Shown: piece after piece, positions 35,913 to 36,742 of the stretch
Layout of the letters: every line of letters starts with the position of its first letter
Numbering within the stretch: the first letter of the stretch is position 1
Assembly (NCBI GenBank): GCA_964652785.1
Contig: CAZZDV010000003.1
Location: 10,416-47,157, forward strand
DNA from: an uncultured Bordetella sp.
GTDB taxonomy: Bacteria > Pseudomonadota > Gammaproteobacteria > Burkholderiales > SG8-39
Direction: 5' to 3'
DNA: 36,742 nt
Position numbers and translations under genes: made by a program
Notes under the pieces: model-generated
Databases searched by the model: none
Told to the model about the DNA's origin: nothing
The model's input: only the letters and a program-made list of their open reading frames with translations

Positions 35913-35962
35913 TTGACGCACTGCAACAACGCGCCTAGAATCTGAATTGTTGCGACGCACAA
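35913..35962 (+). promoter_or_regulatory. sigma70 promoter of the phasin gene overlapped by PhaR-like TGC/GCA boxes
   Basis: TTGACG-N17-TAGAAT (35913-35941); TGACGCACTGCAACA and TTGTTGCGACGCACAA motifs. Confidence 0.65.
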
Positions 35963-36023
35963 GGCGGCACAGAAGCCCCCCCTTACCGCAGCACCGAATT
36001 TATCCACCTTAAAGGAGTTGACC

Positions 36024-36566
36024 ATGTACGTAACGCCTGAGCAGATCACCGCCGCCAACAAAACGAATGTCGAAACCGCCCTTTCGATCGCCGCGACGCA
36101 GTTCTCCGCGATGGAAAAGCTGGTCGGCCTGCAGACCGCCATGCTGAAGTCGATCTTCGAAGATTCGATGAACAACGCCCGCACCCTGGCCGGCGCGAAG
36201 GACGTCCAGGAATTCGTGACGATCCAGCAGACGCTGGCGCAGCCCGCCGTTGAGAAGTGCGTTTCGTACTCGAAGAGCGTGTACGCGATCGCCGTCGAGA
36301 CGAACACCGAGCTGTCGAAGTTCGCCGAAGCGAAAGCCTCGGAGCTGAACCAGAACTTTGTCACGCTGCTGGACAAGGCGAGCAAGAACGCGCCGGCTGG
36401 GTCGGATGTCGGCGTTGCCGCGGTGAAGTCGATGCTGTCGGCGGCCAACTCGGCCTACGACACGTTCTCCAAGGCCGCCAAGCAGGCCACGGAGATGGCC
36501 GAAGCGAATGCAACGGCCGCGACGGAAACGATGAAAGGCTACGCAAAAGCAAAAAAAGCGGCCTGA
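36024..36566 (+). CDS. phaP: Phasin (PHA granule-associated protein)
   Basis: TPEQITAANK, EKLVGLQ, AKDVQEF, KNAPAGSD.GVAAVKS, ..KKAA end; SD AAGGAG before ATG 36024. Confidence 0.93.
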   Translation: MYVTPEQITAANKTNVETALSIAATQFSAMEKLVGLQTAMLKSIFEDSMNNARTLAGAKDVQEFVTIQQTLAQPAVEKCVSYSKSVYAIAVETNTELSKFAEAKASELNQNFVTLLDKASKNAPAGSDVGVAAVKSMLSAANSAYDTFSKAAKQATEMAEANATAATETMKGYAKAKKAA

Positions 36567-36715
36567 GCGCCAAGCGGCCGGCCAAGCGCCGGCCCGAAAG
36601 CGTGGCGCGTGCTTCGCCACCCAAACGGCGCGTCGCAAAACCGGTGAAGAAGCCGGTGCCGAAAGCCGTGGCCAGGGCGGCAAAGCCCAGGCCCAAGGCG
36701 AAGAAGAAGAAGTAG
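36557..36715 (+). other. -1 frame extension of phasin: 52-aa histone-H1-like basic tail reachable by frameshift at A_AAA_AAA (36551-36557)
   Basis: SGLSAKRPAKRRPESVARASPPKRRVAKPVKKPVPKAVARAAKPRPKAKKKK, tandem TAG TAG stops, no ATG. Confidence 0.6.
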
Positions 36716-36726
36716 TAGTCCCAGAA

Positions 36727-36742
36727 CCCCGCTTCGGCGGGG
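36727..36742 (+). terminator. Probable intrinsic terminator after the phasin tail (cut by window end)
   Basis: CCCCGC-TTCG-GCGGGG hairpin; any U-tract would lie outside the window. Confidence 0.65.

Follow-up and report, generated by a model that had tools for sequence, protein, structure and literature searches.

Examination of a 36,742-nucleotide stretch of DNA from an uncultured Bordetella sp. (GCA_964652785.1, contig CAZZDV010000003.1, positions 10,416 to 47,157; hereafter the window) revealed, at its 3' end, a gene encoding a phasin, a coat protein of polyhydroxyalkanoate (PHA) granules, whose mRNA probably carries a programmed -1 ribosomal frameshift. Judging from the sequence, two isoforms would be produced, the phasin of 180 amino acids (aa) and a 230-aa form carrying a basic tail. 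The frameshift is supported by a conserved in-phase slippery heptamer, a tail encoded in the -1 frame, a covarying hairpin downstream, and a sole tRNA-Lys(UUU) in a relative, as well as by the lack of start codons near the beginning of the tails and the absence of in-frame fused forms among the homologues searched. The elements of the proposed signal in the window are as follows.

Positions 36024-36566, plus strand: phasin gene in the zero frame, with ATG at 36024, 180 aa ending in ..YAKAKKAA, and TGA at 36564-36566.
Positions 36534-36538, plus strand: AAAGG resembling a Shine-Dalgarno (SD) sequence, 12 nucleotides (nt) 5' of the heptamer, a candidate 5' stimulator.
Positions 36551-36557, plus strand: slippery heptamer A_AAA_AAA in X_XXY_YYZ phase, two codons 5' of the stop, an A7 run.
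Positions 36557-36715, plus strand: extension in the -1 frame, 52 codons (SGLSAKRPAKRR...KPRPKAKKKK) and TAG, giving a predicted trans-frame product of 178 + 52 = 230 aa.
Positions 36558-36566, plus strand: spacer GCG GCC TGA of 9 nt between heptamer and hairpin, including the zero-frame stop.
Positions 36567-36608, plus strand: compound hairpin with outer stem GCGCCA/TGGCGC and inner stem GGCCGGC/GCCGGCC, the likely 3' stimulator.

The 3' end of the gene reads TAC GCA AAA GCA AAA AAA GCG GCC TGA in the zero frame. The -1 frame is open from 36557 to 36712, up to TAG TAG at 36713-36718, and encodes the peptide SGLSAKRPAKRRPESVARASPPKRRVAKPVKKPVPKAVARAAKPRPKAKKKK, which has 13 Lys, 8 Arg, and a single acidic residue, a Glu; there is no ATG, and the first GTG lies 17 codons from the heptamer start. 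An earlier note made from the letters of this DNA had described the in-phase A_AAA_AAA two codons before the stop, the AAAGG 12 nt upstream of it, the 52-codon -1 frame with its Lys and Arg counts, one acidic residue and no ATG, and a GC-rich compound hairpin 9 nt after the heptamer. Our reading of the sequence agreed with each of these, and the hairpin was recovered in the minimum-energy fold.

Homologous loci were collected from related genomes (30) and from named genome records (80, all of them metagenome-assembled genomes of uncultured Burkholderiales or Betaproteobacteria). Of these 110, 11 were duplicates, 5 ran off their contig, and 10 fell below 58% identity, leaving 84 distinct loci; none of the 10 distant phasins had a tail. 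The pattern NNA_AAA_AAR occurred two codons before the stop at 62 of the 84 loci, as A_AAA_AAG in 43 and A_AAA_AAA in 19. The observed 74% compares with about 1.3% expected from codon usage in the same 84 genes (third-position A, 7.9%, multiplied by AAA, 16.3% of Lys codons), in which GCA makes up only 4.3% of Ala codons. The codon 5' of AAA AAR specified Ala, Pro, Ser, or Thr (GCA, CCA, TCA, or ACA), and its final A was invariant. Conservation of the heptamer at synonymous sites thus exceeds the demands of the protein sequence. A_AAA_AAG and A_AAA_AAA, together with A_AAA_AAC, are given as the most frequent heptamers at frameshift sites of the IS1 and IS3 insertion sequence (IS) families (PMC4066793).

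The third of these heptamers was found at three loci (L019, L099, and L103) where the canonical site is broken, as AAG AAA or AAG AAG, and the basic -1 tail is retained. Each has an in-phase A_AAA_AAC (GCA AAA AAC) 18 nt upstream, 30 nt before the stop, from which the -1 frame is open, and the slippery site appears to have moved in these lineages. Without frameshifting, there is no ready explanation for a second type of heptamer at just those loci that have lost the first and still have the tail. The upstream AAAGG is encoded by conserved K-G codons that are also retained in tail-less relatives, and its role therefore cannot be separated from constraint on the protein. More distant phasins from other families of the order (L022, L025, and L026; 41-48% identical) end in ..KKKAA with AAA AAA codons that are out of heptamer phase (G_AAA_AAA or T_AAA_AAA), and they are tail-less. 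The Lys-rich C-terminus seems to predate recoding and may have been the seed for it.

We then compared the reading frames beyond the heptamer. A tail was scored as 10-80 residues having at least 28% Lys plus Arg and no more than two acidic residues. Such a tail was present in the -1 frame of 60 of the 65 heptamer-bearing loci (the 62 canonical and the three with A_AAA_AAC), whereas the 0 and +1 frames qualified at six and one, respectively. The earlier note had proposed looking in homologues for the heptamer, the stop, a basic -1 frame, and the hairpin, and this layout recurs in the relatives. Among the 19 heptamer-less loci, five had a tail in the -1 frame and in 14 it was gone. Over the tails as a whole, the -1 frame comprised 21.9% Lys, 19.9% Arg, and 0.8% Asp plus Glu, with no stops; the 0 frame had 5.1% Lys and 18 stops, and the +1 frame 5.0% Lys, 13.6% Asp plus Glu, and 37 stops.

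The tails of the relatives are about 15-57 residues long, many of them rich in Arg and Ser, and have the common start K-[GS]-R-[LV]-S-A-K. They terminate at or even within the terminator hairpin that follows. At L050, L062, L071, L072, L076, L086, and L093, for example, the -1 frame closes (..KARR TAG) within the loop or the 3' half of that hairpin, and a ribosome finishing the tail would therefore occupy the 5' arm of the terminator. In none of 57 tails do the 8 codons nearest the heptamer include ATG, GTG, or TTG, and 37 of the 57 lack these codons throughout, which argues against separate initiation. No family in Pfam or NCBIfam matched the tail, and no larger protein sharing it was found at E <= 0.01 among 134 candidates, a weak test given the low complexity of the query.

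A phasin fused in frame to the tail was likewise not found among the best 120 of 2790 homologues, where the eight longer proteins were N-terminal over-calls, or among 150 representatives at 50% identity, where the longer ones were frame-broken or unrelated. One candidate fusion of 227 aa (P0170) was rejected as a noisy sequence with several frame breaks. The best 120 homologues are of 180 aa with the same KKAA-like C-terminus.

The hairpin at 36567-36608 is part of the minimum-energy fold of 36558-36625 (-33.2 kcal/mol). In minimum-energy folds of the 57 tailed loci, the first stem of at least 4 pairs began exactly 9 nt past the heptamer, at the base that follows the stop, in 38 and 6-11 nt past it in 45, with a mean fold z-score of -1.94; the usual spacer between heptamer and structure is given as 5-9 nt (PMC5009743). 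Within the window's genus the outer stem occurs as GCGCCA/TGGCGC, GCGCTA/TAGCGC, and GCGCTG/CAGCGC. RNAalifold yielded little signal on plain MAFFT alignments because of differing loop lengths, and a covariance model built from 7 loci was employed instead. This model produced 49 matches among 83 loci, one of them an odd second hit. Paired cells made up 97.7% of the model-fitted alignment compared to 86.4% in shuffles, none of 500 shuffles scoring as high. Compensatory changes were seen at 8 of the 9 hairpin pairs, and controls with a slid register were 15-63% paired. In the window, the 9-nt spacer places this covarying structure within the usual range.

The complete genome of a relative (G021), whose phasin gene carries A_AAA_AAG and a tail, contained 43 tRNA genes (loci L111-L149), with one tRNA-Lys(UUU) and none with a CUU anticodon. 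This sole tRNA-Lys is UUU despite AAG making up 84% of Lys codons in phasin genes. A sole tRNA-Lys is the reason given for the shift-prone nature of A_AAA_AAG in E. coli, and Thermus, with two Lys tRNAs, is described as using polymerase slippage instead (PMC5009743).

From these features we infer that the shift is ribosomal and would yield both products. Most ribosomes would read GCA AAA AAA GCG GCC and then the stop, producing the 180-aa phasin. A fraction would slip back one base with two tRNA-Lys on A_AAA_AAA, probably aided by the hairpin beginning 9 nt downstream, and would read 52 further codons in the -1 frame to give the 230-aa phasin with its Lys- and Arg-rich, nearly acid-free tail. 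By analogy with PhaF, PhaM, and AlgP, this tail may anchor granules to a polyanion, either nucleoid DNA or polyphosphate.

The same tailed protein would result if RNA polymerase added one A at the run and the A8 mRNA were translated normally. The protein product being identical, the comparative data on the tail fit such transcriptional slippage equally well; moreover, the window's genus has A7, and AAAAAAA is reported to be slippage-prone (PMC4066793). We nonetheless consider this unlikely. At 43 of the 62 canonical sites there are only six A residues and then a G, whereas efficient bacterial slippage has been described for runs of about nine A or T (PMC5009743), longer than those found here. 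The run is always in heptamer phase, and loci with an out-of-phase A6, L077 (GCC AAA AAA) and L010 (GCG AAA AAA), are tail-less. Two further features, the hairpin 9 nt 3' of the heptamer and the single tRNA-Lys(UUU), are typical of ribosomal shifting. An insertion at 36551-36557 was absent from RNA contigs of three runs, although contigs conceal rare variants. RNA contigs of relatives end near 36561-36573, and nothing was concluded from them. Ribosomal frameshifting is favored; in the window's genus, with its A7, slippage may contribute to a minor extent.

There is also a small chance that the -1 frame is untranslated, the region being a structured 3' untranslated region composed, for example, of a stabilizing hairpin and the A-rich arm of a bidirectional terminator, with the heptamer kept for some other reason. 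The conserved hairpin could act alone, A-rich sequence next to terminators is common, the evidence of selection on the tail sequence is weak, and GC-rich DNA leaves frames open by chance, the +1 frame also being open across the tail in the window. Against this, the basic, acid-free, and stop-free composition is specific to the -1 frame (60 of 65 loci, versus 6 and 1), and the heptamer is retained at synonymous sites in the face of strong codon bias. The second in-phase heptamer, confined to the very three lineages in which the first is gone but the tail persists, and the mostly tail-less state of heptamer-less loci (14 of 19) also speak for translation. It is very unlikely that the layout reflects A7/A8 phase variation in the DNA, an assembly error, or a decaying gene. 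Homopolymer runs do mutate often, and a laboratory change from A8 to A7 near the 5' end of Legionella phaP has been reported (PMC11067923). The same layout is nevertheless present in more than 50 independently assembled species, and with regard to A7 versus A8, a point raised in the earlier note, A7 is also seen in a contig from a separate DNA run (X8), which spans 36384-36742 and shows no indel at these A residues. An in-frame version was not found in the homologue sets described above, the A6G of most relatives is a poor tract for mispairing, and the zero-frame ..KKAA is, as the earlier note had held, a normal phasin C-terminus, shared by the best 120 homologues and by tail-less relatives. 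The CTG that overlaps the TGA in the window would allow the tail to be a separate small protein, made by ribosomes re-initiating around the phasin stop, but this is extremely improbable: relatives have CTG, CTA, or GTA at the overlap, the tail is not preceded by an SD sequence, and start codons are missing near the heptamer as noted above.

Several observations weigh against programmed frameshifting or temper its support. The evidence is comparative sequence, and assembled contigs hide a minority product as well as rare A insertions. A complete tRNA-Lys gene was absent from the source assembly (97.9% complete) in a linear scan of its 494 contigs; an apparent tRNA-Lys on contig C140 was a wrap-around artifact across contig ends, absent in the linear scan, and was rejected. 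The hairpin of the window itself folds no better than dinucleotide shuffles (z -0.8; 36 of 200 fold as well). The pair counts come from a structure-fitted alignment in which 7 of the 49 rows are model seeds that match by construction, and the hairpin overlaps codons of the conserved peptide SAKPG...RSSA, which confounds constraints on RNA and peptide. No shared RNA structure was found near the A_AAA_AAC site in L019, L099, and L103.

The tail data carry further reservations. The Lys plus Arg threshold was lowered from 0.30 to 0.28 after L013 and L014 had been seen at 0.29. In seven independent pairs, tails differed at 14, 18, and 29 sites by codon position (chi-square 5.9, p ~0.05, calculated by hand), with 17 synonymous and 28 non-synonymous codons. 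The evidence for selection on the exact tail sequence is weak, and it is charge and composition that seem to be constrained. Five loci bear the heptamer but have no intact tail: a terminator directly follows the stop in L003 and L100, and the frame breaks inside the tail in L016, L041, and L098. In L016 a further change of frame within the -1 tail puts its end, ..GKAKKKS, in the zero frame, still ahead of the terminator. Because P0170 shows a tail of the L016 type uninterrupted, an indel, either genuine or introduced by assembly, is probable in L016; L041 and L098 resemble it. Conversely, L049, L064, L083, L084, and L089 have a short basic -1 frame without a perfect heptamer. On a tree built without the C-terminal columns, in which few branches are well supported, the heptamer changed 11 times and the tail 13 times, and a sign test of their joint loss over 4 well-supported independent pairs was underpowered and not significant (p 0.25-1).

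The phasin matched Pfam Phasin_2 (PF09361; E 5.7e-25, 87.9 bits, cut-off 24.9) and NCBIfam TIGR01841 (E 5e-19, 68.5 bits, cut-off 30.2). The source genome contained two PHA synthase genes and this single Phasin_2 gene. The signals flanking the gene are as follows.

Positions 35913-35941, plus strand: promoter-like site TTGACG-17-TAGAAT 5' of the phasin gene, matching the consensus at 10 of 12 positions.
Positions 36012-36017, plus strand: Shine-Dalgarno sequence AAGGAG, 6 nt from the ATG, as read from the sequence.
Positions 36723-36742, plus strand: 5' part of an intrinsic terminator (AGAACCCCGC-TTCG-GCGGGG), whose T-run is located past the 100-N scaffold gap that follows the window.

A scan of the plus strand revealed only one terminator-like site, 3' of the tail, in keeping with the earlier observation that the sole visible hairpin of this type follows the tail and not the phasin stop. 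The terminator is interrupted by the 100-N gap, with the same hairpin sequence copied on both sides, probably an artifact of assembly or scaffolding. The X8 contig has a 28-letter insertion at 36722, in this terminator hairpin region. An imperfect inverted repeat at 35915-35935 (the CTGCAACAA / TTGTTGCG region) overlaps the promoter from -35 to -10, and part of it was scored as a minus-strand terminator-like hairpin. This repeat is a candidate operator and could serve, for example, a PhaR-type repressor.

The proposed signal resembles those of E. coli dnaX (tau/gamma) and IS3/IS911. In these systems a sole tRNA-Lys(UUU) decodes an X_XXY_YYZ heptamer rich in A (A_AAA_AAG or A_AAA_AAA), with an SD-like element 10-14 nt before the heptamer and a stem-loop a few nt after it, and one gene yields two products (PMC5009743, PMC4066793). 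The phasin signal differs in residing in the gene of a granule coat protein and in its 9-nt spacer, which is at the upper limit of those usually seen, and the SD-like element, a stimulator in dnaX, is here only a candidate. In the phasin the shift would lengthen the protein by 20-57 residues, whereas the dnaX shift ends the protein after one codon and that of the insertion sequences fuses two open reading frames. Also comparable are csoS2 of the alpha-carboxysome and copA, non-mobile cellular genes in which translation fixes the proportion of two isoforms; csoS2, like the phasin, serves a cytoplasmic inclusion or organelle (PMC5009743). The shifted product of csoS2 and copA is the shorter one, unlike that of the phasin, and the families are unrelated.

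In PhaF of Pseudomonas a phasin domain is joined to a highly basic, disordered, histone H1-like tail, a non-specific DNA binder that also places granules on the nucleoid; PhaM of Ralstonia eutropha acts likewise, as does AlgP for polyphosphate granules (PMC5658603, PMC11894788). The 230-aa phasin would similarly join a granule-binding part to a highly basic tail, and the two isoforms, short and tailed, would correspond to PhaI and PhaF, respectively. The C-terminus of PhaF has eight tandem AAKP-like repeats (PMC5658603). The tail in the window has scattered AKP/KKP units and no regular AAKP/KPAA tandem repeats; Tandem Repeats Finder returned only an 11-nt repeat of 2.2 copies inside the hairpin. 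The protein also differs from PhaF in belonging to PF09361 and not PF05597, in its shorter tail, and in that the tail would be reached by recoding, PhaF being encoded by a separate gene. The earlier note had interpreted the gene as a PhaF-like phasin subject to programmed -1 frameshifting and not an indel; the comparative evidence strongly supports the frameshift. The protein itself is a Phasin_2 member, and no PhaF-type PF05597 phasin was found in the source genome (97.9% complete). The term PhaF-like is valid only as analogy, and by that analogy, on the basis of composition, the tail may tether granules to the nucleoid or to polyphosphate. Elsewhere in the source genome, a type IA DNA topoisomerase (C60:9638-12304, L150; Topoisom_bac, E 5e-118) has a similar K/A/P-rich C-terminal tail, and a 119-aa frame (C183:827-1183, L151) is almost wholly Lys and Ala and H1-like, with a match to HC2 below the curated cut-off.

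Full-text literature searches returned no description of recoding in phasins; the phasin papers that mention a frameshift concern, in the text available from them, mutations and not recoding, and the string 'polyhydroxy' is absent from the accessible portion of a recoding review (PMC5009743). The mechanism itself is canonical, and its occurrence in a phasin was not found described. Programmed -1 frameshifting is known from a small number of non-mobile bacterial genes, dnaX, copA, and csoS2 being among the cases reviewed (PMC5009743). If true, the phasin would be a further case, conserved across a clade of uncultured Burkholderiales from soil, sediment, and freshwater, and would belong to a family of proteins much employed in work on bioplastics. 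Gene callers overlook the long form, and the database entries we encountered are of the 180-aa protein. The cassette is short and would need no special host factors beyond the sole tRNA-Lys(UUU).

As a tentative proposal, one gene may take the place in this clade of the pairs PhaI/PhaF and PhaP/PhaM, with the frequency of frameshifting setting the number of tailed coat molecules per granule. If one gene does so, the isoform ratio could respond to the translational state of the cell during the nutrient imbalance that triggers PHA formation, because it would depend on a single tRNA-Lys, an mRNA hairpin, and, in many relatives, a -1 frame ending at or in the stem of the terminator. Programmed frameshifting would also represent a new way of attaching a granule-positioning tail to a phasin at a fixed sub-stoichiometric ratio.

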